Shown: positions 11,916 through 38,144 of the stretch, piece by piece | Layout of the letters: the number at the start of each line of letters is the position of its first letter | Position numbering within the stretch: the first letter of the stretch is position 1 | Sequence record: NZ_CP072379.1 | Strand: one strand, 5' to 3' | DNA: 38,144 bases | Source: a plasmid | Made by a program: the position numbers and the translations under genes | The notes under the pieces: generated by a model | What the model saw: only the letters and a program-made list of their open reading frames with translations | The model's database searches: none | Told to the model about the DNA's origin: nothing

Positions 11916-12024
11916 ACAAACCTCCAAATTTTATTTTTAAATCCTAAATTAGTAAATTCGTTTTAATTATACACCCAAAAAAATAATTTTTCAACCCTTA
12001 GGGTTAAAAATGGTGATTTTCATG

Positions 12025-13579: not shown

Positions 13580-15244
13580 TTATTTATAAGCAACTTTCAC
13601 TTCTTTCCCATGAAATGCAATCCCAATCTTCAAGATATTTTTTATCCCTCTTGCCTTTAGTTTAGTATCATATTTCTTCTCATCAATCTGTTTCAATGCC
13701 TTCTGTGCTCTCTCTTCCATCCCCTTTTTCGTCTTCGATATTTTAAATTCCATAAGGTAAGCTTTCTCGTTACTTTTTATTGGAATCATGGCAAGATCAT
13801 ATCTTCCGTATCCACTTTCATCATTCGAAATAATTTCATATTTCCCCATTAAAAATCCTACAAGCCCTATCATAAACACTTGGTATATTTTTTCCATTTC
13901 CTTGTCCAAGTCAAAAAAGCTCAGCATATTTATCATTATTTCTCCTAATGTTTCCTCAAATTTCTTGATATCTTCATTCTCAAGAGCCTTTATCAAAACA
14001 CTAGTTTTCACTTCTGTTCCAAAAAATCTGTTTAAAAACATATTACCAAAATATTTCCGTATTTCCTTATTTGGAATTCTCAAGTTATAAACATCTGTAT
14101 ATTCTGAAGTTACATCTATTTCCTTCTGTTTTTCATCTTTTGTCAAATATCCACTATATAAAAGTAATTGCCATATTTCATCATTATTATTTAAAAGACT
14201 TTTTATCGTAGTTCCATCAGAAATATATTTTTCAATGCTTTCCCCATCGGTAAATCGTTTTAAATCATCATAAACACTTTCTCCAGCATGATCAAGCATA
14301 TTTTCTAGAAGTGTATTCCCTGAAACATTTGCCCAATATGCCTTGATTTCTTTTTCTCTTACATAATTTACAATAGACCAAGGATTGTATACTTTACTTT
14401 CTCCAAAAATATATCCGTTATACCATTCTCTAACTTCTTCAATTTTGTATTTCATGTCAAAATACTCAAGCATTTCAATTACTTCATTTTCAAGAAGTCC
14501 AAAATATTCTGAATAATCCTTGCTTAAAATCGTATTTACATAAAGATTATTTAAACCAGAGAATATCCCTTCTTTTATGATTCTAGTTATTCCTGTTAAA
14601 ATACCATATTTTAACGAATTATTAGTCTTTAACGCTGAACTATAAAATGTTTGAAAAAAATTTATTGCTTCATTGTAGTATCCTTTATCAAAAGCATTTA
14701 TTATTGGAGCGTCGTATTCATCTATTAAAATTATGACTTTTTTTTCATAATACCTATAAAGACTATCTGCCAAAAATTTTAAAGACATTATGTAGTCTGC
14801 ATCTTCTTTTTCATAAAGCACTTTTTCAAATTTTTTTTTATCCCATTCATTCATTTTTTCTCTAATATACTCAAATTCAACGTATAAATCAAAAATAAAT
14901 AACTTCAATCTTTTTAAACATTCTTCCCAAGTGTCTCCTTTTAAATCCTTCAGTGAAATAAAAATTACAGGGTATTTTCCCTGTTCACTCATATATTCAC
15001 TATCAGATACTTTCAAATTTTCAAAAAGTTTTTTATTTTCTTCTTTATCTTCTACATCAAAAAAATATTTCAACATCGACATATTCAATGTTTTTCCAAA
15101 TCTACGTGGTCTTGTAAATAATGTAACTTTCGATTTATTCATTAACATTTCGTCTATTAATAAAGTTTTATCTACGTAATAATATTCATCTTGTATCAAC
15201 TCTTTAAAATCTTCAATTCCCACAGGAATAGCTTTTTTTCTCAT
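13580..15244 (-). CDS. AAA-ATPase-like protein with a C-terminal PD-(D/E)XK nuclease-like domain, of the 'predicted AAA-ATPase' family common in Fusobacteria and Bacteroidetes
   Basis: A 554-aa ORF. The N-terminus is MRKKAIPVGIEDFKELIQDEYYYVDKTLLIDEML...FTRPRRFGKTLNMSMLKYFF, with a Walker-A-like RPRRFGKT motif. In the C-terminal third, GYGRYDLAMIP...EKAYLMEFKISKT looks like a PD-(D/E)XK-like motif. Its C-terminal 153 aa and 3' flank are duplicated at 30187-30710. A 30-bp copy of its 3' end lies at 33970-33998. Confidence 0.75.
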   Translation of the reverse strand: MRKKAIPVGIEDFKELIQDEYYYVDKTLLIDEMLMNKSKVTLFTRPRRFGKTLNMSMLKYFFDVEDKEENKKLFENLKVSDSEYMSEQGKYPVIFISLKDLKGDTWEECLKRLKLFIFDLYVEFEYIREKMNEWDKKKFEKVLYEKEDADYIMSLKFLADSLYRYYEKKVIILIDEYDAPIINAFDKGYYNEAINFFQTFYSSALKTNNSLKYGILTGITRIIKEGIFSGLNNLYVNTILSKDYSEYFGLLENEVIEMLEYFDMKYKIEEVREWYNGYIFGESKVYNPWSIVNYVREKEIKAYWANVSGNTLLENMLDHAGESVYDDLKRFTDGESIEKYISDGTTIKSLLNNNDEIWQLLLYSGYLTKDEKQKEIDVTSEYTDVYNLRIPNKEIRKYFGNMFLNRFFGTEVKTSVLIKALENEDIKKFEETLGEIMINMLSFFDLDKEMEKIYQVFMIGLVGFLMGKYEIISNDESGYGRYDLAMIPIKSNEKAYLMEFKISKTKKGMEERAQKALKQIDEKKYDTKLKARGIKNILKIGIAFHGKEVKVAYK

Positions 15245-15734: not shown

Positions 15735-16742
15735 TTATATTTTTTGACAACTTTCTCTTTCTATTAATTCAATAGGTAGAAAAACTTTCTTATGATAGTC
15801 TCTTCTACCTTCTAATAATTCAACTAAAGAATTTACTGTTTCTTGAGCTATTAATTTTGTATCTATTTTTATAGTTGTCAAAGGTGGTGTATAATATTTT
15901 GATAATTTTAAATTGTTAAATCCTATTATTGATATATCTTCTGGAATTCTTAGTTTATTTTCTCTAATTGCTTTGTATGCTCCCATTGCTATTGAATCAT
16001 TTCCACAAAAAATTGCTGTTGGTCTATCTTCTAATTCTAAAATTTCTTTCATCATTGAATAACCACTTTCTGTAGAAAAGTCTCCAATTTTTACATATTC
16101 TTCATTGTATAACCCTTCTTTTAGCATTATTTCTTTAAAGTATTTTTCACGAAAATCTACTAAATTTTTTACTACTTTATTCCTTCCTACTAGTAACCCT
16201 ATTTTTTTATGATTTAGTTTTAGAATATAGTTTATAACTATTTCTACTGAGTTTTTTGTATCAAATTTTATGTAATCTATGAAATTATCTGTATCGTATA
16301 CATCTACACAAATAATATTTTTATTTAATTCTTTAAAGAATTTCAATTTTTCTTTACTTACTTCACCTATAAAAATAATTGCATCTGTAAAAGAAAAAAT
16401 TGATATCTCATTTGATTTTATCATTTTTTTTATGTCGTCTAAATTAAAAAATTTTATTTTTGAAAAAATCCTTTTTAAATTATTTTCTAAATTTATTTTT
16501 AAAGATACGAAATATGGATCATCACTTTCAATTTTTTTATCAAAACATTTTATTATTGAAATATTAGATTGTGATATTTTACTTTTATTTCTTTTTTTTA
16601 CGTAATTTAGTTGTTTTACAGCTTCTAGAACTTTCTCTTTTGTAAAAGCACTAACTTCGAAACTTTCATCATTATTTAAAATTCTCGAAACTGTTGTTAT
16701 AGAAACTCCTGCTTTTTTTGCAACTTCTCTAATTGTAGCCAT
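15735..16742 (-). CDS. LacI/GalR-family transcriptional regulator
   Basis: A 335-aa ORF. The N-terminal helix-turn-helix MATIREVAKKAGVSITTVSRILNN is typical of the LacI family and is followed by a periplasmic-binding-protein-like effector domain. It is the last gene of the minus-strand lac cluster. Confidence 0.8.
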   Translation of the reverse strand: MATIREVAKKAGVSITTVSRILNNDESFEVSAFTKEKVLEAVKQLNYVKKRNKSKISQSNISIIKCFDKKIESDDPYFVSLKINLENNLKRIFSKIKFFNLDDIKKMIKSNEISIFSFTDAIIFIGEVSKEKLKFFKELNKNIICVDVYDTDNFIDYIKFDTKNSVEIVINYILKLNHKKIGLLVGRNKVVKNLVDFREKYFKEIMLKEGLYNEEYVKIGDFSTESGYSMMKEILELEDRPTAIFCGNDSIAMGAYKAIRENKLRIPEDISIIGFNNLKLSKYYTPPLTTIKIDTKLIAQETVNSLVELLEGRRDYHKKVFLPIELIERESCQKI

Positions 16743-16813
16743 TTTTCTCCTTTTTATTAAAAAATTTTACTGTAAAAAGGGGATAACTAAAACTATCCCC
16801 TAAAAAAACTCTA

Positions 16814-18259
<1,446 letters not shown>

Positions 18260-18279
18260 TTAGTATTAAAATACATTAA

Positions 18280-19983
18280 TTAATCTTGAAATTGTTTTTG
18301 TACAAAATCTAATGCACCTTTACCATCACGAGTCAATTTAATATACTGAGCTCCTTCAGTTTTAGCTAATTTAATTCCTAATTTATCAGTTTCTGCTTTC
18401 ATATCTTCAAAATTTGATGCAACTTGTGGTGCAAGAATAACTAAATCAAATTCAGGAAGTATTTCACGATGTGCACCATACCCACCTGCTGCAGCTTTAA
18501 CAGGAACATTAAATTCTTTTGCTGCTTTATTTAAAGCGTTAGCTAGAAGTCCACTTGTTCCTCCACCGGCACACAATACAAGTACATTTGTTTCTTTTGT
18601 TATATTATTTTTAACAGCCTCAGTTTTTTCAACACCAGCTTTTTTAAGAATATTATCTGCTTTTTCAGTATTAAAGTTAGCAGCTACTTTATCTTTTAAT
18701 TCGTTATTTGTAGTTCCTAGACGTTCTTCTTCAAGAATTTGTTTATCGTATACTTTTATGAATGGATAATAAATAATAAAGTCCACAACTACTAAAAGTG
18801 CCGCTAAAACAAATGATAATATTTGAAGATTTGTTCCCAATATTATTCCCAATGGTCCTGGAGTTGTCCATGGAAGGTTAGCAGTAAAGCTGTTCATTCC
18901 AAGCACATCTATAAATATTTTAAAAATCCAAACATTTACTATTGGTGCAAAGATAAATGGTATAAAGAATACTGGATTTAATACAATTGGAGCACCAAAT
19001 AAAAGTGGTTCATTTACACCAAAGAATGTAGGTACTACAGAAGCACGTCCAATAGCTTTATTTCTCTTAGATTTACAAATCCACATAAACATAAATGGCA
19101 CTATTAAAGTTGCTCCAGTTCCTCCCATTGTAACTATAAACATTTGTGTTCCTGAAGTTAAGATTTTATCCGCATGTTGTCCAGCTCTCATAAGATTTAA
19201 GTTTGCATCTATATTAGCATAAGTAACAACTGCAATAGCTGGTTCTACAATTGAAGGTCCATGAATTCCAACAAACCAGAAGAACGCAAAAGCTCCAAAG
19301 ATAATAGTAATTCCTACATATCCATCGGCTGCTGAGAATAATGGCCCAAAAAGTTTACCTACTGCTTCTGCAACTCCTGTACCAATAAAATGACGTACAA
19401 GAATGTCAAGAACGTAAAGTGATACAACTGATAAAGTAAATGGTATTACATCTTTAAAAACTTGTGAAATATTAGGTGGAACTTCTGAAGGCATTTTAAT
19501 AGTTACTTCATTTTTTATACAAAATTTATAAATAGTTACAGTTATAAATGATGCTAAAAATGCAGTTAAAAGTCCTTTTGTCCCCAAGAATCCAGTTGAA
19601 AATCCATCTTTAGTGGGATCTGCTGCTAACAATAACAAACCAACCATCGAAGCTAAAAGTGTAGAAATATAATTAACTTGATTAGTTGCTGGCATAGAAC
19701 GATTTACAGAATCTGTTAAAGATTTAGCTGTTGTTCCAGCTACTAAAAATGCTAAAATTCCCATAGAATAGCTGTATGGTTTCATTAATAAAGCTTCTAT
19801 ACTTTTTGGCCAAAAAAATCCAAAAGCATTTGGAACATAAGCAATTAAGATAAAAATACTAGAAAATAATATAACGGGCATCCCAGCTATAAAACCATCC
19901 CGAATCGCTCTTAAATATATATTCCGAGATAATTTTTCAAAAAAAGGTTTCCCTTTTTCTATAAATTCAATCAGTTTTTCCAT
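18280..19983 (-). CDS. lacE: PTS lactose-specific EIICB component
   Basis: A 567-aa polytopic membrane protein with a C-terminal IIB domain ([23 protein letters not shown]). Its start overlaps the lacF stop (TAATG). Confidence 0.9.
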
Positions 19984-20300
19984 TACTTTGCTCCTCTTTT
20001 ATATAATTCTATTAAATGTTTCATTAATTCTTTCAGTAATATTGTTGTCATTAAATGGTCTTGTCCATGAACCATAATGAAACTTATTTCCAAATTTTCT
20101 CCAGCTGATTCTTTAGCTAAAATATCTGTTTGTGCATTATGTGCACCAACTAAGCATTCTTCAGCTTCTTTTACTAAGTTTTCAGCTTCTTCAAATTCTC
20201 CATTTTGAGCTTTATTTAATGCAATCATTAATTTAGATCTTGCATCTCCTGCATAAGCTACTATTTCAAATCCAACCATTGTTACATCTTCTTTAGTCAT
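19983..20300 (-). CDS. lacF: PTS lactose-specific EIIA component
   Basis: [24 protein letters not shown]...[28 protein letters not shown] closely matches my recollection of staphylococcal LacF. The start at 20300 follows GGAG with a 9-nt spacer. The longer start at 20351 in the ORF track is unlikely. Confidence 0.85.
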
Positions 20301-20440
20301 AGTGATTTTCTCCTTTTCAATTATTATTTGGTTATTTATACGTATTTGCAAAATACAATTGTTTTTATTTGTAACAAGGGGTAGACTCCCCTTGCTAATA
20401 CTACTGTTTAATTTTTTTATTACATATAATTTATATTATT

Positions 20441-21418
20441 TTATTTTTCTTTCCAAGATGTAGCAGTTTTTGCAACTACTTCATTTAATTCTTCAATATT
20501 TTTTCTTCCAACTGTATTTAACCAGTTTACTGTAGCTTCTTCTCCGTCTTTTGCGAATACTTCTACTCCATTTGCCCAAGTTGCTCTTCCACATAATACT
20601 CCATTAAATTTAGCTCCTGAATCATGAGCGAATTTCAATGTATCTTGGAATAATTTTGCACTAACTCCAGCACTTAAATAAATGTATGGCAAGTTTGTTG
20701 CTTCATCTTGTTGTTTGAAATAGCTTGCTGCTTCTTCTTTAGTATAAACAACTTCTCCATCAGCAAATCCTTCAACATATTTCATATTTACAGGAACCTC
20801 TACTTTCAATACATCTACGTTATATCTTGGTTTAGAGAATTCTTTCATTGCTTCGATAACTTTTCTTGGTTTCAATTTTGCAAATTCTGCTGTGCTGTTG
20901 TCAGCATCTTTGTAGTTGTAGCTTAAAATTTCTAAGAAGAATGGAATATCTTCAGCTACGCATTCAGCTCCAACTCTTTCCATGTATGCTCTCTTTTGAT
21001 TGTTGATTTCATCACTTTCATCTACGTCATAGTATAATAAGAATTTTACAGCATCTGCTCCTTCTTCTTTTAATCTTTTTGCAGACCAGTCAACAAGGCA
21101 ATCTGGCAATCTTCCAACTGCATTTGCATCATATCCAGTTTTTTCATAAGCTAATAACAATCCTGCATTTTTATCTCTAGCTTTTGCTGCATCCAATCCA
21201 TATTCAGGATCTAACAAGATTGAAGAAGAGTATTTTGTTAAATGTTTTGAAACTAATACTTTAAATTCTTTTATTTGTTCAGCTGTTGCTTCTGAAGCTT
21301 GATGTTTATTCAACATTTTTTTCAAAGCTCCTCTTTGGTCAATTGCTAAAGCTGATATAAATCCATTTTCATCACTTAAATTTTCTAAATATTTTCTTTT
21401 TTGTGCTGTTAATTTCAT
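20441..21418 (-). CDS. lacD: Tagatose-1,6-bisphosphate aldolase
   Basis: A 325-aa ORF of the LacD/DeoC-like class I aldolase type. It sits in the lacABCD position. Confidence 0.85.
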
Positions 21419-21654
21419 GTTTTTTTCCTCCTAAAAATATTAATAGTTTTGTTAATACTTGTATTTTGTTAAATATTATTTTTATATACAGTCATTATTT
21501 CAGTACTCTGAACTTTAATTTGTTTTCCAGCTTTCAGAAATTTTTTTAATTTATTAGCTTTTTTATTTGTGAAGGAATTCAATCATATTTTTTAAATTTT
21601 GAAAGCTGGAAGCAATTTTTAATAACTATAGTATCTTCACTAAAAAAATTTTGA

Positions 21655-22593
21655 TTATAAATTAATAATTTCAATTTTTTTAAATAATTCTTCATATTTA
21701 TCTAAATTCACAAACCCCGTTAATTTTTCCATTGCATTTAACATCCCAAGGACATTTGCCTTTCTTAATAAAGTTTCATCACTCGCATTTTCATGAATTG
21801 CTGATGTTATTCCTGCAACTGTTGAATCTCCTGAACCTACAGGATTTACGACTTCTATTTTAGGAACATTCACTTTATAAAATTTATCATTGTGTTTTGC
21901 AAAAGCTCCATCTGCTCCAAGTGAAACAATTATCCATTCAATTTTTTCAAATAATTTATCTTTTAAAATTTCTTTTAGTTCATTTGGATTTTTAGATACA
22001 TCTTTTCCAATTAATTGAGACAATTCTTCTGTATTAGGTTTTATTACTTTAGGTTTATAATTATTTTTTAAAACTTCTATTAGTGCTTTTCCTGAACAGT
22101 CTAATACAACTGGTTTTTCATATTTTTCACAGATTCCAATCATTTTTGAATAATAATTAGTTTCCAATCCATCTGGTAAACTTCCTGAAATAGCGATAAT
22201 TTTAGTATTTTCATTTTTTACTAATTCTTCGAAGTGCTTTAAAAAATTTTCACTTTCAGATTTTGTTATAGTTGGCCCTTTTTCTAAAATTTCAGTTTGA
22301 TTCCCTTCATGCAAAATTGCAATACAGTTTCTAGTTTCCCCTGAAATTTCAAAAAAATCATTTTTAATTCCTGTTTGTAATAATTTTTCTTTAATATCAG
22401 TTCCTAAAGCACCACCTATAAGTCCAGTTGCAACAACTTCATCATCTAATTGTTTTAATACTCTTGTAACATTTAAGCCTTTTCCACCAGGAGTTTTACT
22501 AACCTTAGCTACTCTATTTACAGTATCTAAATTAAATTCTTCCAAAGGATATGAAATGTCAACAGAGGGATTCATTGTTACTGTTAAAATCAT
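21655..22593 (-). CDS. lacC: Tagatose-6-phosphate kinase (PfkB family)
   Basis: A 312-aa ORF with the PfkB-family C-terminal motif [11 protein letters not shown] (aligned with the second PfkB motif, which normally ends DTxGAGD) and GG-containing N-terminal region. It sits in the lacC position. Confidence 0.85.
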
Positions 22594-22712
22594 TTTAACT
22601 AACTCCTTTCTTTAAAATCGAACTTAAGAAAGAAAAGAATATAAACAGGTTAAATTTTAAGTTCGATTTTAAATTTCATTATATAATCAAAAAATTTAAA
22701 AATTAAATTTTT

Positions 22713-23228
22713 CTAGTCTTTGTATTCTCCTCTGTCCCATTTTGCTAAAAATTCATCAAAAAAGTCATCTTTTTCTTGATTAGGATTTACAGTTTCTATT
22801 GCTTTAATTTTTGCAATTAATTTTTCACTTTCTTCTGTCTTTTTATATTCTGCTTTTATAAAAGCTTCTACAATATCAAATAATAATAATTTTCCTGTTA
22901 TTGCACCACCAAATCCAATTACATTTGCATTCAAATGTTCTTTTGCATAAAGTGCTGAAGTCATATCTCTTACTAGAGCTGAACGGATTCCTGGAACTTT
23001 ATTTACACTATTATTAATTCCAACTCCTGTTCCACAAATACAAACACCTAAGTCAGCTTTTCCATTTACTACAGCTTCTCCAACTCTTCTACCATAAATT
23101 GGATAATGTGTTCTTGTAAAATCATAAGTTCCACAATCTAAAACTTCATAACCTTTTGATTTCAAAAAATCCGATAATGCCATTTTCACATCGGTTACTA
23201 TGTGATCACATCCAATTGCAATTTTCAT
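22713..23228 (-). CDS. lacB: Galactose-6-phosphate isomerase subunit B
   Basis: [46 protein letters not shown]...[13 protein letters not shown] closely matches my recollection of staphylococcal LacB (RpiB/LacAB family). Confidence 0.9.
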
Positions 23229-23275
23229 ATTTTTTCCCATCCTTCATCATTTTTTTAATTTTTAAACTAAATAAA

Positions 23276-23698
23276 CTAACACATTTTATTTAACATATCT
23301 ACTCTAATTTGATGTCTTCCACCGTCATAAGGAGCACTTAAAAAATCTTTTACGATATTTTTAGCAAGTCCTTTTCCAACAATTTCAGAACCTATTGTAA
23401 TAATTCTAGAGTTGTTATGTCTTCTAGTCATATATGCTGATCTTTCATCAGAAACTTCTGCTGCTATCATTCCTTTTATTTTTGTAGCAACCATAAAGCT
23501 TCCTGCTCCATATGCATCAAACACAATTCCTAAATTATCATCATCTGATAAAACTTCTTTTGCTACTGCATAAGTTGTATCTACAAAATCTTTATCTTCT
23601 GATTTATCAATTACATCATACCCATTTTCTAAAAGATAATTTTTGATATAATCTTTTAATTCTTTACCCTCTACATCTGAACCTAATACAACTTTCAT
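23276..23698 (-). CDS. lacA: Galactose-6-phosphate isomerase subunit A
   Basis: [31 protein letters not shown]...[15 protein letters not shown] matches LacA. The ATG at 23698 has AAGGAG 9 nt upstream. The upstream extension to 23764 is unlikely. Confidence 0.9.
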
Positions 23699-24013
23699 TA
23701 TGGTCATCTCCTTTATTTTATTTTGTTTTGCTTTTCTGTTAAAATTATAACCTAAAAAGAACAAAAAACAATAGTTTTTGTTTATATTTCAAACATAAAA
23801 TTGTTCGTTTGTTTACTAAATGTTTTTATAAGAGTTGTTTTTAAAACCATTTTTAAAGATTTTTTATTGAGTAAACAAATTTTGGAATATTAAGATTAAG
23901 GGTTTGATATGAGATCATAAAAAAAAAAGTACCAAAAATATTTAGGATTTTAGTACTTTTTTACAAATAATCAAAGATGGTCTATTATTTTAGATATTTG
24001 TTCAAATTAAAAA

Positions 24014-24760
24014 TTAAATAATTAGATTCGTATATTTTTCAATATTATTTAAAGTTTTATTTTCTACAGTATTAGTTACAACTCCAGTTAATTTATCTAA
24101 TGTATAAAAATTTATAAAATCTATTTTTTCCATTTTTGAATCATCAACTAACAAATATTTTTCTTCTGAATTATTTAAAACAATTTCTTGAGTGTAACTT
24201 TCTTCAAATGTAGAAGTCATAATATTATTTTCTTTTATTGCATTGCAACTAAAAAATGCTTTATTAAAATTTGTATTTTCTAGTATCATATTCGCTATTT
24301 CTCCTACAAATGATTTTGTTATTTTTCTAAATTCTCCTCCAACAAGAAATACGTTAAAGGTTTCACTTTTTTTTGAAAATAAAATTTCAAAAATAGGCAA
24401 ACAATTTGTTAATACTCTTAATGATTTAAGATTGATTTCTTTTGCTAATAATTCTACCGTAGTTCCAGGACCTAAAAAAATTGTATCTCCTTCTTCGATT
24501 AATTCTAAAGCTTTTAATGCTATTTCTTTCTTTTTTTCCACATTTAAAACAGATTTATCCTCATGAGATAATTCTTTATATTGGCTTTTGGCTCCTCCAT
24601 GTATTCTTTTTAATATTCCTAATTCTTCTAGTTCTGTAAAATCACGTCTTACTGTCATATCAGAAACATTTAAACTTTCTACTATATCAGAAACTCTAAC
24701 TGTTCCTTTTTGTTCAATTATTTTTGTTATTGCTTCTAGTCGTTCTTCTTTACTTAGCAT
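24014..24760 (-). CDS. lacR: DeoR-family lactose operon repressor
   Basis: A 248-aa ORF with an N-terminal DeoR helix-turn-helix (EERLEAITKIIEQKGTVRVSDIVESLNVSDMTVRRD) and a C-terminal sugar-phosphate-binding domain. It lies upstream of lacA as in the staphylococcal and streptococcal lac operons. A terminator-like hairpin at 23926-23968 separates it from the lacA promoter region. That region carries a 10-bp inverted repeat tttgtttact...agtaaacaaa (23805-23880). Confidence 0.85.
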   Translation of the reverse strand: MLSKEERLEAITKIIEQKGTVRVSDIVESLNVSDMTVRRDFTELEELGILKRIHGGAKSQYKELSHEDKSVLNVEKKKEIALKALELIEEGDTIFLGPGTTVELLAKEINLKSLRVLTNCLPIFEILFSKKSETFNVFLVGGEFRKITKSFVGEIANMILENTNFNKAFFSCNAIKENNIMTSTFEESYTQEIVLNNSEEKYLLVDDSKMEKIDFINFYTLDKLTGVVTNTVENKTLNNIEKYTNLII

Positions 24761-25156: not shown

Positions 25157-27142
25157 TTATCTTGAATTTATAAAATCTTTAGTATTTTTTTTGATTTTCT
25201 TGATTGTGTTAGTAATGACTTTTTTGAATATTTTAAATTTCTTCTTTAATTTATTAAGTATTTTTTCCATATTGGATAGACATTCATTTTTTTCATCATA
25301 TTCATAATTGTAGTAGCTATAATCTTCAGCATAATTTAGTATATCGAATACTTTGTTATTATCTTCGTCCTCTTGACTTTCTAAACCTTTCAAAAGCGTT
25401 ATTTCACTATCTTCTATGTCGTTATTTTCAAAAATTTCCACAGCATTATCAATTCGATCAAATGTTTCAAATTCAAACTTTCTGTAAAGATTTTTATTGA
25501 ATTGAAATGGAAAATCATTAATAACAAAATCTTTATTCTTTTTTATTTCATTGTAATGATTCAAGATTAACTCTTCTTTTACTTCATCTTCAATCTCTTT
25601 AATTTCTTTATCGCTTAGCGAAACTTTCTGGCGAATTTGTTCTTTTAAATTTTCAATTTCAGTTTTCTGATTATTAAGAAGCTCTTGTTTTTTAGCTAGA
25701 TGGTTTTTTTTAAGTTGTTTTAGCTCAATTTCGAGCTTCTGTTTTTCATTAACGTTAATCATATTGAGCTCTAATCTTGCTGTATTGATATTTTGATTTA
25801 ATAGAGCATTTTCATTTTCTAATTCTTGTTTTTTTACTTTAAGCTTTTCTATATCTTCAGAGAGAACAGTTTTTAAATCATTGAATGTACTTTTAAAGGC
25901 AGCTCTGGTATTTTTATCTAAATTCTTTAAAAAATTATTTAAATTGGCGTCTAATGATTTTAACTTTTCAACTGCATTATCATTTATAGAAAAATTACCA
26001 TCTCTAATTATTTCTTGTGTTTTTAAATATTCTTTTTGATATTCCTCAAATGTCATTTCTGATTTTCTTTTAATTTCTAATTCCTTTAAGTTCATTTGTA
26101 ATAATTCATCGAATTCAATCTGATTCATTTGTTTGTTATTAAATTTTTCAATAAGTTGTTTTTTTCGATAATTTATTTTATCTCTCAAATCTTTTAAATT
26201 TTCTGCATTTTTATAATTACTATTTTCTAAAGTTTTAACGATTTCTATTTTATCATCCAAAATTTGTTCAGCGATGTTTTTAAATTTTGTAAATTCATCT
26301 GTTTTAGATATAAAGTCAACAAATTGTTGGTGTACGTCATCTTTAAAAAAATTTATTAATTTATTACAACTTTGATCATAGTAATATTTTTTAGTTCTTT
26401 CTTTTTTATTAACTTTATCAATCATTTTTTCTGACTGTTTTTTGTAGTTTTTTTCTATATAAAAATTTTCAAAATCTTTATATTTATCAAAATTTTTAAT
26501 GACATCAAAATTCTGTAAGTCAAACAGTTTACAAAAAGCTATTTTGTCATTAACTTTTTTGTCAATTTTATGAAAATTTTTGGTATCAATCTCAAATTTT
26601 TTTAGTTGTCTCGCACATCTTGTTTTTAATGTTTTTATTATTCTCAAATTTTTATTTTTTATTATTTCAGAGTCACTCATTTTTTCGTTTATTTTTCGTT
26701 GGGCAAACATTGTATGCATATGAAGATTATCCTCATCACGATGTACTACACAATACACAATATTTTCTTCTTCCATATTTAATTTTTTCATTAAAAATTT
26801 TAGATTATTTTCGAAATATTTTTTTATTTCTTCTTGAGTTAAAATCATGTTTAAATCAATATTTGTTTTATTATTTAATTCAAGTTCCCGTATGTTAATT
26901 TTACTTAAAAAACATACAATATCTTTAGAATTTTGTTCAACTTCAACATCATTAAATTGTTCATTTAGAATTTCTTCATTAAAATCTCGAATTTTAATAT
27001 TTAGAGTACTCAAATTTTTATTAACATTATTTGCATAATTTTCAGAGACTCTTGTAGCTTCATTTACATAACTTTTTATCGTATTTTTTTGCTTAACACT
27101 TGATAAAGTTGTAGCTTTATTTAAAAAATTTAACTGTATCAT
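25157..27142 (-). CDS. mob: Mobilization relaxase, Mob/Pre (MobV) family, with a long coiled-coil C-terminal extension
   Basis: VVHRDEDNLHMHTMF around residue 130 fits the MobV HxDE...PHxH metal-binding motif. The C-terminal roughly 450 aa are heptad-like and Lys/Glu/Asn-rich. Candidate oriT inverted repeats lie immediately upstream. Confidence 0.7.
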   Translation of the reverse strand: MIQLNFLNKATTLSSVKQKNTIKSYVNEATRVSENYANNVNKNLSTLNIKIRDFNEEILNEQFNDVEVEQNSKDIVCFLSKINIRELELNNKTNIDLNMILTQEEIKKYFENNLKFLMKKLNMEEENIVYCVVHRDEDNLHMHTMFAQRKINEKMSDSEIIKNKNLRIIKTLKTRCARQLKKFEIDTKNFHKIDKKVNDKIAFCKLFDLQNFDVIKNFDKYKDFENFYIEKNYKKQSEKMIDKVNKKERTKKYYYDQSCNKLINFFKDDVHQQFVDFISKTDEFTKFKNIAEQILDDKIEIVKTLENSNYKNAENLKDLRDKINYRKKQLIEKFNNKQMNQIEFDELLQMNLKELEIKRKSEMTFEEYQKEYLKTQEIIRDGNFSINDNAVEKLKSLDANLNNFLKNLDKNTRAAFKSTFNDLKTVLSEDIEKLKVKKQELENENALLNQNINTARLELNMINVNEKQKLEIELKQLKKNHLAKKQELLNNQKTEIENLKEQIRQKVSLSDKEIKEIEDEVKEELILNHYNEIKKNKDFVINDFPFQFNKNLYRKFEFETFDRIDNAVEIFENNDIEDSEITLLKGLESQEDEDNNKVFDILNYAEDYSYYNYEYDEKNECLSNMEKILNKLKKKFKIFKKVITNTIKKIKKNTKDFINSR

Positions 27143-30237: not shown

Positions 30238-30699
30238 TTATTTATAAGCAACTTTCACTTCTTTCCCATGAAATGTAATCCCAATCTTCAAGATATTTTT
30301 TATCCCTCTTGCCTTTAGTTTAGTATCATATTTCTTTTCATCAATCTGTTTCAAAACTTTCTGTGCTATCTTTTCCATTTCATTTTTTGTCTTTGATATT
30401 TTAAATTCCATAAGATAAGCTTTTTCATTGCTTTTTATTGGAATCATCACAAGGTCGTATCTTCCATATCCACTTTCATCATTTGAAATAATCTCATATT
30501 TCCCCATTAAAAATCCTACAAGCCCTATCATAAACACTTGGTATATTTTTTCCATTTCCTTGTCCAAGTCAAAAAAACTTAACATATTTATCATTATTTC
30601 TCCTAATGTTTTCTCAAATTTCTTAATATCTCCATTTTCAAGTGCTTTTATCAAAATATTTGTTTTTACTTCTGTTCCAAAAAACTTGTTTAAGAACAT
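30238..30699 (-). pseudogene. C-terminal 153-aa fragment of a second AAA-ATPase/PD-(D/E)XK gene, truncated by IS insertion at about 30712
   Basis: DNA at 30187-30710 is over 90% identical to 13530-14055, including the 3' flank. The homology ends abruptly at the IS terminal repeat ggagtgtccccaaaaatttagacta. Confidence 0.8.
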
Positions 30700-31651: not shown

Positions 31652-32284
31652 TTAAGTTAAAGATTTAATTTGCTCCTCAATATCTCTAATTTCTTCTCTT
31701 ATCTTTTTTATCAAGTGTTGCCTTTTTACTTTTTCTCTCGTTAAAAAAATTCTTCTTTCTTCCACATCTGATAACTTTACTGCTTCTTTCTGTTCTTCAA
31801 TTTCTTTTAATTTTAAACTTGGATTATCTGATTTTATTACTTCTATAATTTCAGTTTCTTGAAAGTTTTCTTTTTTATGCCCTGTTAAAGTTTTTACAGT
31901 TCTGTTAGGTAATGTTAAAACCTTCTCTGGTTCTTCAAGTCCCTTAGCTTGATATTCTAAATATAATGAATATTTTCTTATTGCTACATTTGCACTGTCT
32001 CTATCTATACCTAATTTTTCTATCCATTTTCCAAATGACCCATTTCCTTTATTTGAAAAAATTTGATTGGCTTCAAATATTGCTTTTGAATATTTAAAAA
32101 TATGTTCCATTGACTTTTCTTTATGGAATGTTATGTCGTTTTCATATTTTATAAGCTCTTCTTTTTCTGTTCCTGATATATCAAGTTCTTCATAATCTAT
32201 ATTATAAATACTTTCAATCTTTGCTACTACAGGAACTTTCTTGCTATTAATTTTACTAAGATCTAAATTAAATTTTTTGCTCAT
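31652..32284 (-). CDS. Putative partition adaptor or centromere-binding protein (ParB-like partner of ParA)
   Basis: A 210-aa charged protein whose start overlaps the parA stop (ATGA). Its position and size fit a plasmid ParB/ParG-like partner. I do not recognise a diagnostic motif. Confidence 0.45.
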   Translation of the reverse strand: MSKKFNLDLSKINSKKVPVVAKIESIYNIDYEELDISGTEKEELIKYENDITFHKEKSMEHIFKYSKAIFEANQIFSNKGNGSFGKWIEKLGIDRDSANVAIRKYSLYLEYQAKGLEEPEKVLTLPNRTVKTLTGHKKENFQETEIIEVIKSDNPSLKLKEIEEQKEAVKLSDVEERRIFLTREKVKRQHLIKKIREEIRDIEEQIKSLT

Positions 32285-33021
32285 TTTATCCCCTCTTTTT
32301 TTATCATTTCTTTTGCTAAGCTACTATAATCTTTTGCTCCATTTGCATTTTTTGAATAATCAAATATTGATTGATGTGTAACAATACATTCCGATAAAGC
32401 CACATTTTTTCTTATTATACTTTTTAGTAAATAATCTTTATATTCTTCTTTCAACTGTTCCTGTATTTGTTCCGACAATGCTGTTTTTTCTTTTCTAATT
32501 AATATAATTCCCGATATATCTTTTCCCAATCCTTTTGTAAAATTAATCGTAGCATTAAGTCCTAAAAGCTCATTTATTCCAGGTAAAATTACAGGATAAA
32601 CACTTGAAGTGTAAATTGCTGAAGTCGTATACGCATTAAATGCTGGAGCGGTATCAAATATTATAACATCATAATTTTCTGATAGATTTTCTAAAAAATT
32701 ATTCAACAGTTGATAATAATATGGTCCTTGATTTCTTAATTCTTCCATATCTTTTTCTGCTTCAGTCCCAGCACTTATTAAATATAAATTTTTATTTAAT
32801 TTTTCGGGTTGAAAGTCATTTGTTCTTTCAAGTAAATAATCTCCTAACGAAAAATTTAATTCATTAACATTTATTCCAAAATTTGTAGAAAGATTTAACT
32901 GCGGATCAGTATCGATTGCCAAAGTTTTTAATCCCTGCTTTGAAAAATAATGTGCCAAATTAAAAACCGTTGTTGTTTTACCACAACCACCTTTATTATT
33001 AACTATTGCTATTTTTTTCAT
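32281..33021 (-). CDS. parA: ParA/Soj-family partition ATPase
   Basis: MKKIAIVNNKGGCGKTTTVFNLAHYF is a deviant Walker A motif (KGGxGKT). The ATG at 33021 follows AGGGAGG. It is about 247 aa long. Confidence 0.85.
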   Translation of the reverse strand: MKKIAIVNNKGGCGKTTTVFNLAHYFSKQGLKTLAIDTDPQLNLSTNFGINVNELNFSLGDYLLERTNDFQPEKLNKNLYLISAGTEAEKDMEELRNQGPYYYQLLNNFLENLSENYDVIIFDTAPAFNAYTTSAIYTSSVYPVILPGINELLGLNATINFTKGLGKDISGIILIRKEKTALSEQIQEQLKEEYKDYLLKSIIRKNVALSECIVTHQSIFDYSKNANGAKDYSSLAKEMIKKEGIK

Positions 33022-33095
33022 AACATCCTCCCTAAAAATAAATTTTTTTATCACTTTTAGTATAACATTATTTATAAAAAAATCAATTTTTTTAA

Positions 33096-33186: not shown

Positions 33187-33828
33187 TTATTTTAAAATAC
33201 TATCTAAATTTACAAGTTTGCTATTGATATCTGAAAAACTCAAGTTAGCATAAATTAAAGTATTGTTTATATTTTTATGACCAAGAACTTTCTTTAATTC
33301 TGCTAATGATAATCCAGCGTTTAGTAAATGTACTGCTCGACTGTGACGGAATACATGCGTATGTGCAAACTTCTTATCAATTCCTAACTTTTCAAATAAA
33401 CGTTTCATGTATCTATTTGTGTGATTTTCATCAGCTCTTCCTTTTCTAGAATTTCGTGCAATATAGTCTTTACTTGTTAATCCCAAATGTAGCTGCTGTT
33501 CTAGTAATAGAGCATAAAGTTCTGATGACATAACAATTTCCTTGTAATCCTTAAATTTTTGTTTTGAGTTATTGATTTTTGCCACTGTTAGATTTTTCCC
33601 CCTGTAATTAATTTTCTGTATATCACTATACTTTAAGTTAACTACTTCATTAATTCTTGCTCCTAATTCATATAGTAATGAAAATACTACTTTGTAATTA
33701 AGACTTGCATTTTCAATAATTTTTTTTATATCTGATTCACTAAGATATTTAACCTTTTCTTCTTTTTCATCTTTTTCATCATCTATAAGAATTATATCAT
33801 TTCTATTTTGTATAAAAATATCCTTCAT
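33187..33828 (-). CDS. Short tyrosine recombinase (catalytic domain only, 213 aa)
   Basis: GARINEVVNLKYSDI carries the catalytic Arg I. HTHVFRHSRAVHLLNAGLSLAELKKVLGHKNINNTLIYANL carries the H-x-x-R, His and Tyr nucleophile motifs. There is no N-terminal core-binding domain. Confidence 0.75.
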   Translation of the reverse strand: MKDIFIQNRNDIILIDDEKDEKEEKVKYLSESDIKKIIENASLNYKVVFSLLYELGARINEVVNLKYSDIQKINYRGKNLTVAKINNSKQKFKDYKEIVMSSELYALLLEQQLHLGLTSKDYIARNSRKGRADENHTNRYMKRLFEKLGIDKKFAHTHVFRHSRAVHLLNAGLSLAELKKVLGHKNINNTLIYANLSFSDINSKLVNLDSILK

Positions 33829-34096
33829 TTTAGTTCCTTTCTATAAGGAATTTTTTTTTTTATCTCATACCTTATTAATAATAATTATATAATATAAATT
33901 ATCAAAAAACAATATCAATTTTAGAACTTAAAACAAAAAGGTATGAAAATAATTCATTTCCACACCTTATTTTAAGCCTCAATTTATAAGCAACTTTCAC
34001 TTTTTCTGTTCAGATTATTAAATATATAACTATATTTTAACAGAAAAATTTTTTTTTAGCCATAACAAAAACCTCCAAATATTATATAGTTGTTTT

Positions 34097-34141
34097 ACCA
34101 TATATTATATTTTGAATTTACACAAAATTATGGACACTCTC
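34097..34141 (+). repeat. Junction element taccatatattatatttt followed by a 28-bp unit gaatttacacaaaattatggacactctc
   Basis: Matches 8468-8513. It lies about 290 bp upstream of the recombinase gene start, and both are on the same side of the module. Confidence 0.65.
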
Positions 34142-34223
34142 GCATCTCCTATTTTATGTCCGATATTTTGGATATATTTCAACAAAAAATCATCTGATTT
34201 TTTAGATAATTGTTTATAGAACT

Positions 34224-34403
34224 TATTTTTCTATCCTTTTTATTAGTTTACCTTTGATATAAATTTCTTCTGCTATTATTTTTCCATTCAAATTATATTC
34301 CTTACATAATCCACAAAGTCTTTCTTTTTCATCAAAAGAAACTTTAAATACAACTTTTTCATTTTTCCTTCTAATGCTATTTCTGAAAACTATATTGTTT
34401 CAT
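34224..34403 (-). pseudogene. Frameshifted small ribbon-helix-helix-like ORF
   Basis: MKQYSFQK is followed, after a frameshift, by NSIRRKNEKVVFKVSFDEKERLCGLCKEYNLNGKIIAEEIYIKGKLIKRIEK. The KVSFDEKERL...EYNL pattern resembles a ribbon-helix-helix DNA-binding protein of the CopG/MobC/antitoxin type. Confidence 0.25.
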
Positions 34404-34429
34404 TTCTACACTCTTTTATGAATACTCTC

Positions 34430-34945
34430 TCAATAATAGGGAATTTCAATATCATACCATCTTTTAAACCTAATTCCGATTTTATCTATAATAAATTCTG
34501 TTTCTTGATTTTTTAATTTTTTATTTTTAATAAATATCTTAAACTCAAAATAATTTCTATCGTATTCATAAAATCTTGTCCTAATTTTTTTATATATCTT
34601 TTTTTTATCTAAAATTTTTTTTAATTCTTCTTCTGATATTTCATATGTACAAAAACGCTTCTTCTCAAAGCATTGTAAGTTGTCTAAGTTTTTATTTACT
34701 AAAATTTCTCCTAATTTTTTATTATGATATATTATTTCAATTTTTTCCAATATATACTCCCTATTTAATTGTGGATCAAGATAAATGGAAAGATAATTAT
34801 CTTCCACTAACAAGTTATCAACCTTATTATTTTCATTTACTGCAAAACTTTTACTAATTCCAGCTAATTCATAATTTCCAAAATCTTTAAAATATATAAA
34901 AACTAATATAAAAATTGATATTAAAATTACAATTTTTTTTCTCAT
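34430..34945 (-). CDS. Small exported protein directly coupled to the tpsA 3' end, a candidate CdiI-like immunity protein
   Basis: A 171-aa ORF whose ATG immediately follows the tpsA TAA (TAAATG). The N-terminus MRKKIVILISIFILVFIYF is a signal peptide or membrane anchor. I do not recognise a family. Confidence 0.5.
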   Translation of the reverse strand: MRKKIVILISIFILVFIYFKDFGNYELAGISKSFAVNENNKVDNLLVEDNYLSIYLDPQLNREYILEKIEIIYHNKKLGEILVNKNLDNLQCFEKKRFCTYEISEEELKKILDKKKIYKKIRTRFYEYDRNYFEFKIFIKNKKLKNQETEFIIDKIGIRFKRWYDIEIPYY

Positions 34946-37900
34946 TTATCTTCCTTTATTATCTTTATGATATTCTTCTAATTCTTTAAATCCAACATGG
35001 GTTATTCCTTTTTTTCTAGCCCATTCAGAAATTTTTGAATAATTTAAACTTATAGTTTTGGCTAATTTATCATAATCCTCCCTTTCTTTTTTTGTTGATT
35101 TATCATTTATTCCCGTACCATGCTGTTTCCAATTACTTACATCTGTAAAATAATGTTTTCCTGCTTCCAATAACTCTACTGGATTAGAAAGATTTTCATA
35201 CGTATAGTAATCAAACGTTCCTATATTAATTGGATCCTTCACAACTTTTTTTAAGTCTGAAGTAAACACAATTTCTCTTCCATTTTCTTTATTGACAAAT
35301 TTTATATTTAGTCCCCCTGTTACTTTAATTTTTCCACCAATCATATTATGATATACTGCTTCTTTAGCTGAAACTCTTTCATACTTTTCAGGATGTTTTT
35401 TAAATTCTTCAATAGCTTCTTTATGATTCAACGCAACTAAATAATAATAATTAATTTTTTCTCTTTCTTTTTTATCACTGGAATAAGCACTCCAATTTAC
35501 TAAATATTTAGTAAAACGAGAATCAATTTCTTTTTTATATTCTTTATTGTTTAGATATTTTTCCCAACTTATAGAATCAGCTATTTTCTTTTCTTCATAT
35601 GCTTCTATAAAAGCACGTAGAACATTTGCTTTTTCTTTATCAGTATTAAACATTTTTTTACTATGATATTCAGAAGGAACTATTGTCTTATCCCCCACAT
35701 TCTCACCAAAATCAACATTGGAATAATCTTTCCCGTCTGATTGAATATTGATAGCTGGATTGTCATCCTTGTATTTTTCAGAAAAGTACTCATTTGAAGC
35801 CCTTCCTGTACTTTCAAGCCCTTTTTCATCTGTTCCTGTCTTTCTCTGTCTACCTTCAACTTTTCCTATTACGTGGCTTCCCTCTTCAACTATTGTTCCA
35901 ATAAGTCCAGCCTTTGTCATATTTTTCGAATCTTGTGCATTGATTATTATTGTTTTAATTCCATAATCATCTACATATGCTGTTCCTGTCTTTGGTTTTC
36001 CTTTTTCATCTAATAATTGTGGAGAATTTTTAGGATCTGAAAATATGATGTTTATGTCATATCCTAAATCCTTGTAGGCATCCTTAAAAATACCTGCTAT
36101 TTCAGTATCTACTGTCTTACCTATCAATCTTTCGCTCGTTATATTTTCAAGACTCTTGTCCAGTCTAACTTCTGAAAGCTGCCCAAAGAAGTTCCTGTTG
36201 TCATCCCCTCTGTCGTGAATTGACTCTTTTATTGCCCATTTTATGTCATTTATTTCCTCTTTGGCTTTCCCAATATCCTCTTTCAGTTTACCAGGATTAG
36301 TAAGATATTCTATAACCTGTGGCTCCACATTGATATTTGTTCTGCTATGAGTGTCCTTTATTATTTCATTGGCTTTACTTATGTCAGTATTTATAGGTGC
36401 TCCTTCATCTCTTCCTATTTCAGGACTTCCTATGACAGTATTTCTTGTGATTCCTTGCTTATCTCTGCTATCCTGATTGAATCCAACATTGGTAATTTTT
36501 GGGTTTCCTCCAAGTGAAACTCCTATTGAACCTCCTGTTGTTGTCATTGTATCATAATTTTGGATATCTTTTCCAGCATAAGTGTCAATTCTGAATGTAG
36601 AGTTCCCTTCCTTGCCTATTACAGCTCCAGTATTTTCAACTGTTCCAACATGAAGGTTGCTTCCTTCTCCAACAACGAATGTACTTTGATTGTCTACAAA
36701 TGCCCTGTTTCCATTTGTTCTACTTGCATTTATATTTACTGATGTTGGAATTCCTTGAGAACTCACTCCTACGCTCATTCCTTTACTGCTTCCAGTTGTT
36801 GTGCTTGTATTCTGTCTTGAAATAACTTCAACTTTTCCAATGTTTCCTGTTACTTTTCCACCTTCCTGATTAAATCCTGAAAGTGTCATTGTTCCAGTAT
36901 TATTGTGAACTTCATTTACATTTTGAAAATTACCATTTTGATAAATAGTTTCAGTTGTATTTTGATTACTTTTACTTGCTGAAATACTTCCACCGTTTCC
37001 AGTTGTCTGCATTTTGTGTCCATAACCTACTGTTGCACTTGCATTTATTCCTTTACTTGAACTTGATGAATTACTGCTGTTGTGCAATTCTACGGCTTCT
37101 TTTCTAATATTTTCAACATTGTTGTAAACGAATGTTCCGCCTTGTGCTTGTGTTCCTTGATATTCAATATTTTTTACATTGTTGTAAGTTATGCTTGAAT
37201 TTCCATCGGTAGGTTTCATTGTAGTTATAACAGCACTTTCTGTGTGCGAATCAGAGCTACTCTTAGATTTAGATATTCCAGCGTTTACTCCAATATTGGC
37301 ATAAAAATTATTGTTGGCTGAAGCATTTTTTACTCCTTGTTTTCCAACACTTCCATTAACATCATAGTTTGTCTGTCTTGTTCCTTGATTGTCTGCAAGT
37401 CCTTTAATTGTGCCAGTTACTGCATTTATTGCAGTCATTGCTCCACCAGCAGTATCGCCGTCCTTAACCTGTTTTACAGCATTCCCAGCCTGTTTTGCCC
37501 TGTCTAATATTGGGCTGTTTATTCCTGCTGAAATTCCAAAACTGCTGCTTTTACTTTCCGTATGCACATCTCTCGTATCAATTCTTGCTCCATATTTTAC
37601 ATCGCCATTATTGATTTGAATATTTCCGTATTCAAAGTTTGTAGCCGTAATTTCTGCACCTTTATTCAATACAGAACCATCTCCAATTTGTAAGTTAGAG
37701 CCAGCATTTATCGTACTCTTCTCATCGTATGAATTTTGTGATTTTCCATAACTTAATGAGGCTGTTCCGTGACTTATTCCACCTGAGAATCCTTTTTTCT
37801 TGTTCTCTTCAAAATAGCTATTGTGTAGCTGTTGTGCATCTGTTGTAAGTTTTCCACCAATATATGTATTATCTCCAAGCACAACGTTACTTCCAATTGA

Positions 37901-38144
37901 ATTTATATCGCCTAATATTACAGCGTTCTCTCCAAGCATTAGGTTACTTGCTGAATTTTCTTCAGTATGTGAATTTTTGTAGCTGCTTTTTGATGACATG
38001 AAACCTTTGCTTGTGCTTTTTGATTCATTTTCATAACTGTTTACTGCCGACTCTACTTTTATATTTCCTATTACTGTAAGTCCTGTCGTATCTTTTGCGA
38101 TAAATGATGAACCTTTTAAGTTCATATCTCCAACTGTTCCTGAA
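34946..38144 (-). CDS. C-terminal portion of the TpsA/CdiA-like exoprotein (FHA-2-like repeats plus a roughly 500-aa non-repetitive C-terminal region). The ORF continues past the right edge of the window.
   Basis: The frame is open from 38144 to the stop at 34946. Ser/Gly/Asn/Thr-rich beta-helix repeats (…ESKSSSFGISAGINSPILD…) give way after about residue 560 to a charged, non-repetitive domain (…VENTGAVIGKEGNSTF… to …HVGFKELEEYHKDNKGR). The frame at 38144 is continuous with the tpsA frame at position 1. Confidence 0.8.
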   Translation of the reverse strand, partial: SGTVGDMNLKGSSFIAKDTTGLTVIGNIKVESAVNSYENESKSTSKGFMSSKSSYKNSHTEENSASNLMLGENAVILGDINSIGSNVVLGDNTYIGGKLTTDAQQLHNSYFEENKKKGFSGGISHGTASLSYGKSQNSYDEKSTINAGSNLQIGDGSVLNKGAEITATNFEYGNIQINNGDVKYGARIDTRDVHTESKSSSFGISAGINSPILDRAKQAGNAVKQVKDGDTAGGAMTAINAVTGTIKGLADNQGTRQTNYDVNGSVGKQGVKNASANNNFYANIGVNAGISKSKSSSDSHTESAVITTMKPTDGNSSITYNNVKNIEYQGTQAQGGTFVYNNVENIRKEAVELHNSSNSSSSSKGINASATVGYGHKMQTTGNGGSISASKSNQNTTETIYQNGNFQNVNEVHNNTGTMTLSGFNQEGGKVTGNIGKVEVISRQNTSTTTGSSKGMSVGVSSQGIPTSVNINASRTNGNRAFVDNQSTFVVGEGSNLHVGTVENTGAVIGKEGNSTFRIDTYAGKDIQNYDTMTTTGGSIGVSLGGNPKITNVGFNQDSRDKQGITRNTVIGSPEIGRDEGAPINTDISKANEIIKDTHSRTNINVEPQVIEYLTNPGKLKEDIGKAKEEINDIKWAIKESIHDRGDDNRNFFGQLSEVRLDKSLENITSERLIGKTVDTEIAGIFKDAYKDLGYDINIIFSDPKNSPQLLDEKGKPKTGTAYVDDYGIKTIIINAQDSKNMTKAGLIGTIVEEGSHVIGKVEGRQRKTGTDEKGLESTGRASNEYFSEKYKDDNPAINIQSDGKDYSNVDFGENVGDKTIVPSEYHSKKMFNTDKEKANVLRAFIEAYEEKKIADSISWEKYLNNKEYKKEIDSRFTKYLVNWSAYSSDKKEREKINYYYLVALNHKEAIEEFKKHPEKYERVSAKEAVYHNMIGGKIKVTGGLNIKFVNKENGREIVFTSDLKKVVKDPINIGTFDYYTYENLSNPVELLEAGKHYFTDVSNWKQHGTGINDKSTKKEREDYDKLAKTISLNYSKISEWARKKGITHVGFKELEEYHKDNKGR

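Follow-up and report, generated by a model that had tools for sequence, protein, structure and literature searches.

The subject of this report is the C-terminal end of a giant secreted protein, TpsA, and the small gene directly behind it, on a plasmid of a Leptotrichia-like bacterium (sequence record NZ_CP072379.1); the whole stretch of 38,144 nt that was analysed is called the window below. The two genes belong to a two-partner secretion (TPS) operon which in order of transcription reads tpsB-tpsA-imm, all on the (-) strand, and the closest named relatives are from Leptotrichia wadei. The first gene, tpsB (4648..6453), encodes an Omp85-type two-partner-secretion transporter of 601 aa (Pfam ShlB, 6e-53; POTRA_2, 6e-16; POTRA_3, 2e-9). 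The second, tpsA, is divided between the two ends of the window. Its N-terminal part (1..4544) comprises a signal region, the TPS secretion domain (Pfam TPS, 3e-48) and a repeat shaft, and its C-terminal part of 1,065 aa plus stop codon (34946..38144) comprises filamentous haemagglutinin (FHA) repeats (Fil_haemagg_2, 6e-19), a pre-toxin region and the toxin tip. The window ends at 1 and 38144 meet in frame inside the gene, two nucleotides and one nucleotide making up a single codon; the joined tpsA has 2,580 codons with zero internal stops across the junction, which a metagenomic homologue (P0136) spans gap-free (86 % over 200 aa). As tpsA is in frame across both ends, the window represents a complete circular molecule of 38,144 bp. 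The frame is open from about 4640 to base 1, and the true start may precede the ATG at 4544 by a few codons.

The third gene, the candidate immunity gene (34430..34945), encodes 171 aa from an ATG start, with the N-terminus MRKKIVILISIFILVFIYF. It lies in the same frame as tpsA, parted from it by a single TAA (34946..34948), and the Shine-Dalgarno-like AAGGAAG read from the sequence four nucleotides before its ATG (34950..34956) sits within the final tpsA codons. An earlier note on this DNA had quoted this open reading frame (ORF), its N-terminus and two strings from the C-terminus of the large ORF, and all of them are present where they were said to be. A hairpin scan placed a terminator-like hairpin followed by a T-run 3' of the operon (33938..33968 (-)); it is the sole such site in 33700..35100, where shuffled sequences gave an expectation of 0.0.

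The limits of the toxin region were found by searching with the last 501 aa of TpsA and aligning the matches. Many relatives are 86-91 % identical up to ...DGKDYSNVDFGENVGD and unrelated beyond it, and some of them bear Ntox50 (PF15542) or GH-E/PT-TG (PF14410/PF14449) tips after this point. Such a sharp break between conserved and variable sequence, with alternative tips behind it, is the cassette-exchange signature of polymorphic toxins, and the alignments identify the last 247 aa of TpsA as a swappable putative toxin tip (34949..35689 (-)), composed on alignment and AlphaFold2 evidence of an N-terminal helical sub-domain, a core and C-terminal helices. The boundary motif DFGENVGD (35690..35713 (-)) closes the conserved pre-toxin region and was assigned from the alignment breakpoint; it has the part that falls to VENN in CdiA. 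The tip hence begins at 35689 and not at 35800, and the 'last 280 aa' of the earlier note take in about 37 aa of conserved pre-toxin sequence. TpsA itself has no match to PF04829 or PF04830 and no [VIA][ED]NN string in its 2,580 aa, and DUF637/FHA-2 was not detected in it with Pfam.

Two further observations may be added here. The pre-toxin part (35690..36460 (-)) contains GLIGTIVEEGSHVIGKVEG and gave no significant match by itself; related proteins have weak matches to Peptidase_M48 (1e-4, upstream of the tip) and Tox-MPTase4 (4e-4), and the GLIGTIVEEGSHVIGKVEG region may be a degenerate processing-peptidase-like module. Chromosomal Leptotrichia-type contigs (L002, L003, L005 and L020) carry long arrays of 5'-truncated FHA fragments, each with its own tip (EndoU and the window tip family included) and a small 3' gene, interspersed with SUKH, DKNYY and Rep3 genes, as orphan toxin/immunity islands.

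The tip occurs in seven sub-families, with 26-80 % identity to the window copy. What is common to the family is a core of about 110 aa, roughly residues 96-205 of the C-terminal tip (CT), mostly situated at the extreme C-terminus of the carrier protein; in the window the conserved, catalytic-looking core was delimited by hidden Markov model (HMM) search, alignments and model as CT residues 96-215 (35045..35404 (-)). Four residues are invariant in the alignment of 62 diverse members: H114 (35348..35350), E139 (35273..35275), H179 (35153..35155) and D183 (35141..35143), all on the (-) strand. K130, G157, T158, N160, G191, D196 and R203 are each at least 90 % conserved in the same set. An exhaustive HMM search of 1.84 billion cluster representatives (clusters at 50 % identity) returned 269 clusters with the core at E <= 1e-3, 61 of them at E <= 1e-10, and a word-index protein search with the core profile gave 25 matches, all unnamed. 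Among the carriers are FHA proteins, Rhs proteins or fragments of Rhs tips, and CdiA-type proteins that have DUF637 and PT-VENN; the family extends over Fusobacteriota, Proteobacteria, Spirochaetota and Firmicutes. These alignments and searches show that the core defines a widespread, unnamed family of putative toxins with an invariant H...E...H-x3-D set.

In proteobacterial members (P0254, P0208, P0204, P0218 and others) a conserved linker, helical and about 85 aa long, connects the (A/V)ENNYL boundary to the core, and its four conserved cysteines (C-x4-6-C ... C-x5-6-C) suggest two disulfides; the Leptotrichia versions of this region have zero cysteines. The stretch of about 85 aa that VENN-type members have ahead of the core falls short of the cytoplasm-entry domains of characterised CdiA-CTs, leaving little room for such a domain.

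AlphaFold2 gave the whole tip a predicted local distance difference test score (pLDDT) of 80 and a predicted template modelling score (pTM) of 0.75 from 8 sequences, and the core 87 and 0.76, respectively, from 44 sequences. The modelled core is mixed alpha/beta: H114 stands at the end of a short helix, K130 and E139 on beta-hairpins, the G-T-x-N motif in a loop, H179 and D183 on a long helix capped by G191, and R203 on a further helix. In front of it, the model of the tip shows a helical N-terminal sub-domain of 95 aa. At curated thresholds, Pfam and NCBIfam returned zero matches for the tip, the 171-aa ORF, 62 family members and 10 partner proteins. When both models were compared with the PDB by Foldseek, the lowest E was 3.7 and kinase C-lobes matched weakly, at TM 0.2; sequence searches of the PDB, whether from single sequences or from the family profile, brought up no solved relative. 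These comparisons support the view that the modelled tip fold matches no described family or PDB fold, as had been suspected of the C-terminal region at the outset.

Several candidate assignments were discarded. The best match in the PDB sequence searches, of the family profile to the 'NGTYNYY' stretch of influenza HA2 (E 0.08; CT about 135-166, about 35192..35287), in which the shared pattern reads 'C..I.NGTYNY..Y', was taken as chance. The motifs VENN, DxYD(x5)HR (ColM), HxK(x4)D (PLD) and HExxH are absent from the full TpsA. In view of the H/E/H/D set, assignment to the LAS/VanY-type or Amidase_3-type zinc hydrolases, to zinc phospholipase C or to the HD phosphohydrolases was weighed and dropped, as no fold similarity was found.

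The 171-aa protein has 15 database homologues (61-99 % identity), and in four independent metagenome contigs (L019-L022) a 96 % identical tip precedes a 99.4 % identical ORF, with TAA and ATG arranged as in the window; this recurrence places the ORF beyond chance. Identities of toxin and immunity protein to the window pair are 57 and 43 % in L001, 46 and 41 % in L005, and 34 and 28 % in L003, where the immunity alignment is weak. The two proteins diverge in parallel, which is the pattern of cognate toxin-immunity pairs. Adjacent to the tip, conserved and changing in step with it, the ORF behaves as the cognate immunity gene, and the comparison across loci supports the proposal that it encodes the immunity protein. 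The database entry of a near-identical immunity protein (P0121, 197 aa) reads a TGA and two more stops as W; its length is a gene-calling artefact, and the DNA of L019-L022 has the stop codon of the window.

Against the same four metagenomic copies, the tip of the window differs by 10 substitutions and the immunity protein by one. Among those in the tip (35141..35350 (-)) are N160D, where N is found in at least 90 % of the family, and Y190H. This imbalance suggests that the toxin is changing faster than its immunity gene, or decaying relative to it. The departure from the near-invariant N160 would also suit a TpsA that serves an oral commensal chiefly as an adhesin or as an effector directed at the host, with a tip that is not antibacterial and an unrelated membrane protein in the 171-aa ORF; FHA-type proteins of host-associated bacteria are commonly adhesins. 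We consider this highly improbable, given that the tip sits at a cassette-exchange point common to known antibacterial toxin domains, recurs in orphan toxin/immunity arrays, co-varies with its 3' ORF and shares its core with Rhs and VENN-type CdiA carriers.

The location of the immunity protein deserves closer attention. Behind MRKK, residues 5-21 (IVILISIFILVFIYFKD; 34883..34933 (-)) form a predicted transmembrane (TM) anchor with a mean Kyte-Doolittle hydropathy of 2.46 over 17 residues, flanked by three K/R on the N-side versus one on the C-side, and followed by a domain of about 150 aa. No lipobox is present and, by eye, no good AxA signal-peptidase site follows the anchor, so that the N-terminus looks like an uncleaved N-in/C-out anchor and not like a cleaved signal peptide. 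Of the 'signal peptide or anchor' put forward before, the anchor is thus borne out and the cleavable signal peptide is not. The 171-aa protein is predicted to be held in the inner membrane by this segment. The positive-inside rule gives C-out for both one-TM and two-TM homologues; in the two-TM homologue of L005 an RKKK loop between the helices again places the conserved domain outside. A cysteine pair, C92/C99, is kept in five of six homologues and replaced by tyrosine at both positions in the sixth; being kept or lost together is what would be expected of a disulfide, and it fits a periplasmic domain. Charge distribution and paired cysteines agree in pointing to a soluble domain that faces the periplasm, which is the predicted topology that the earlier note had anticipated for an immunity domain outside the cytoplasm.

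Membrane association extends to the partners across the family. About 20 loci were read, about 15 of them independent (L011 and L008 are the same contig), and in every one the gene 3' of the tip encodes a membrane protein, of one of two types: an N-anchored protein with a soluble domain, or a small protein with three to four TM helices. The former type is found in the window, L001, L003 and L005; in the Rhs-linked locus L006 the partner had been called without an anchor, and a GTG at 8480 adds MKRIIIGLTITVSIVLAIVFF, which provides one. The partners in L002, L008 and L009 are polytopic (82-141 aa). A scan with a narrower, proteobacterial alignment, one genome per species, added L011-L016 (three Rickettsiales metagenome-assembled genomes, Pseudodesulfovibrio, a member of the Methylocystaceae, and Sphaerochaeta), in which all six partners have 83-125 aa, three predicted TM helices and the common layout MK-TM1-TM2-KKK-TM3. 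The small partners of L011-L016, L008, L009 and L002 are loosely similar, with an I/L-P motif in TM1 and a KK(K/R) loop, and belong to no Pfam family. On this sequence evidence, the small three- to four-TM partners may constitute a new immunity family. In none of the loci read was there a soluble protein of cytosolic type that could serve as immunity candidate. A membrane partner throughout the family, proteobacterial, spirochaetal and Rhs-linked members included, supports the suggestion that the tip would have an envelope or periplasmic target.

Stand-alone copies of the core also carry export signals. In L009 (5652-6293) a 213-aa copy starts with a lipoprotein signal, MKKLVLILLLSIIINSC, with the lipobox IINSC; its gene lies within an orphan array, directly after the four-TM partner of a VENN-type CdiA tip. 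Two contigs from spore-forming Firmicutes (L017:2501-4481 and L018:838-2637) have N-anchored stand-alone copies with all conserved residues intact. Both come after hup (the gene for HU), in L017 with spoVIF-spoIVA upstream as well, and closely 3' of each lies a gene for a larger protein, which in L017 is an N-anchored WG-repeat protein overlapping by 17 nt. These Firmicutes copies could be envelope enzymes with a housekeeping role, or else the toxins of simple secreted pairs.

Exported relatives of this kind, bearing a lipobox or N-terminal anchors, argue against a tip that acts in the cytoplasm, for instance as a nuclease, while the membrane protein blocks its import or turns its domain to the cytoplasm. 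Such a mode has precedent, as the characterised enzymatic CdiA-CTs are DNases and RNases which cross the inner membrane by means of an N-terminal entry domain (PMC9086364); the 95-aa helical sub-domain of the tip could serve in this way, and nucleases too can have H/E/H/D sets. We nonetheless regard action in the cytoplasm as unlikely: no nuclease family or fold was matched, no locus read offers an immunity candidate of the soluble, cytosolic type, and the positive-inside rule, like the paired cysteines, suggests that the domain lies outside.

A membrane-located immunity protein together with delivery of the contact-dependent growth inhibition (CDI) type is also what characterises the CDI ionophores, for which membrane-embedded CdiI proteins are already known (PMC11630599); an exported immunity protein is accordingly unusual for CDI but not unprecedented. 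The tip could then be a non-enzymatic ionophore or pore-former, with partners that confer immunity within the membrane, as with CDI ionophores and pore-forming colicins. The small three- to four-TM partners of most non-Leptotrichia loci are of the CDI-ionophore immunity type (PMC11630599), and the anchor region has a weak, sub-threshold Colicin_im match (E 0.05). CDI ionophores are hydrophobic five-helix bundles, whereas none of 86 cores contains a 19-residue window with hydropathy >= 1.6 (median maximum 0.39), the window tip reaches a maximum of 0.41, and the models show a mixed alpha/beta core with no five-helix bundle, on which grounds membership in the ionophore group was rejected. The tip is moreover strongly charged (40 K, 27 E), and its four invariant polar residues are of the catalytic- or metal-site type. 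A pore or ionophore is, in our judgement, decidedly unlikely. The invariant H/E/H/D set and the want of a hydrophobic helix in the 86 cores argue for an enzyme rather than a pore.

Altogether, the comparisons show a plasmid-borne polymorphic toxin operon of type Vb, of which the locus forms the toxin-immunity end, and we hold with moderate confidence that its tip is an envelope-acting enzyme countered by a membrane immunity protein. In the mechanism we propose, the tip would cross the outer membrane of the target cell and then stay out of the cytoplasm, doing its enzymatic work either in the periplasm or at the outer surface of the inner membrane, most probably as a metal-dependent hydrolase that uses H114, E139, H179 and D183. 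As for the substrate, our guess is an envelope component associated with the membrane, be it a wall precursor linked to lipid, the head group of a phospholipid, or membrane-proximal peptidoglycan. Bound there by the anchored immunity domain, or by the three- to four-TM mini-protein of other lineages, the tip would be blocked and the producer and its siblings spared. A membrane-proximal substrate would explain how both an anchored domain and a tiny three-TM protein can protect.

Several points weigh against this interpretation. Its basis is sequence, models and gene neighbourhood throughout, and the topologies come from simple rules (hydropathy, positive-inside), not from a dedicated predictor. 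As no solved structure resembles the fold, the enzymatic class was guessed from the residues that are conserved. Pore-forming and ionophoric toxins, too, typically come with small polytopic immunity proteins, and the helical sub-domain of 95 aa at the start of the tip could serve for entry. The window copy may also be attenuated, in view of D160 and of the 10 substitutions in the tip against one in the immunity gene; it may instead be altered in specificity or fully active.

In its general architecture the locus resembles CdiB/CdiA/CdiI: tpsB neighbours a giant TpsA that has both a TPS domain and FHA repeats, the C-terminal toxin is exchangeable behind a sharp boundary and has its immunity gene directly 3', and relatives have orphan arrays. 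It differs in that TpsA has DFGENVGD at the boundary in place of VENN and a DUF637/FHA-2 match, both of which distant members of the core family do bear; in the gene order tpsB-tpsA-imm on a Fusobacteriota plasmid; in an immunity protein that is anchored and predicted to face the periplasm; and in the place where the tip is predicted to act. The characterised CDI toxins are DNases, RNases and pore-formers (2022 review, PMC9086364), whereas the family of this tip is unnamed and is neither a nuclease nor an ionophore family.

Closer parallels for the proposed mode of action exist outside CDI. The bacteriocins of the ColM type, phosphoesterases that cleave lipid II, have immunity proteins that are, depending on lineage, N-anchored and periplasmic or integral to the membrane (PMC5277000). 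Colicin M with Cmi or PmiA-type immunity thus shares with our family the dual anchored/integral immunity pattern, as well as a predicted soluble enzyme on the periplasmic side; membership was rejected since DxYD(x5)HR is absent from TpsA and the ColM fold was unmatched. For the Lipocone toxins, periplasmic action was inferred from uniformly TM or lipoprotein immunity proteins, and TelC/TipC-type members are inferred or shown to act on lipid head groups outside the cytoplasm (PMC12419801). TelC/TipC and the other Lipocone toxins resemble the family in the conserved His, Glu and Asp of their tips and in TM or lipoprotein immunity (PMC12419801); secondary structure and the lack of a fold match rule out membership in this group, which is defined by a four-helix cone whose H2, H3 and H4 carry His, Glu and Asp, respectively. 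In their logic, an envelope-degrading enzyme (as proposed here) neutralised by exported immunity, the type VI effectors are comparable as well: Tae, Tge and Tle act in the periplasm and are paired with periplasmic Tai, Tgi and Tli immunity proteins. They use another secretion route, and no sequence or fold similarity to amidases, muramidases or lipases was detected for the tip.

The polymorphic-toxin framework is familiar; the toxin family, the two immunity classes and a periplasmic enzymatic mode for type V systems are not. Taken further, the H-E-H-D core would be a metal-dependent enzyme of undescribed fold and the first enzymatic CDI/TPS toxin to kill from the periplasm, for example by cleaving lipid II, an undecaprenyl-linked precursor or phospholipid head groups; it would be used by type V and Rhs systems in several phyla, have anchored relatives at spoIVA-hup loci, and be countered by two unrelated new classes of membrane immunity. 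We put this extended version forward tentatively, as a possibility whose parts are somewhat doubtful when taken together. If true, a tip working enzymatically in the periplasm adds a mode of killing to type V systems, and, with no inner-membrane receptor needed, the routes to resistance change. With 269 unnamed clusters and no solved fold, a single biochemical characterisation would annotate hundreds of proteins; characterising the family could also reveal a new envelope target of antibacterial interest, and the two new immunity types lend themselves to clean studies of how toxins are neutralised at a membrane surface. Carried on a small plasmid of an oral commensal, the locus is relevant to strain competition in the human mouth.

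The plasmid nature of the window is marked by two Rep3-type initiators, a Mob_Pre-like relaxase, a ParA ATPase and a tyrosine recombinase (7372..8412 (+), 10959..11927 (-), 25157..27142 (-), 32281..33054 (-) and 33187..33828 (-)). The recombinase is short, 213 aa, and consists of the catalytic domain alone. A megablast search against PLSDB plasmids gave no close match; coverage was 4-15 %, confined to the conserved pre-toxin part in two L. wadei plasmids.

Between the immunity gene and the terminator lies an unlisted frame, KNEKVVFKVSFDEKERLCGLCKEYNLNGKIIAEEIYIKGKLIKRIEK* (about 34226..34366 (-)), with a weak, sub-threshold MORN_2 match (E 0.002). It resembles what is left of the 3' end of a MORN-repeat gene, possibly, we would guess, an older immunity gene. 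Elsewhere, the plasmid carries a sugar block of the lactose/tagatose-6-phosphate type (15735..24760 (-)) with genes for a LacI-family regulator, a GH1 phospho-beta-glycosidase, a phosphotransferase system (PTS) EIIC-IIB, a LacD-type aldolase, a PfkB kinase, a LacAB/RpiB isomerase and a DeoR repressor. A full AAA-ATPase_like and PDDEXK_9 protein of 554 aa is encoded at 13580..15244 (-), and a 153-aa ORF at 30238..30699 (-), which has the PDDEXK_9 part alone, looks like a duplicated or truncated copy of it.

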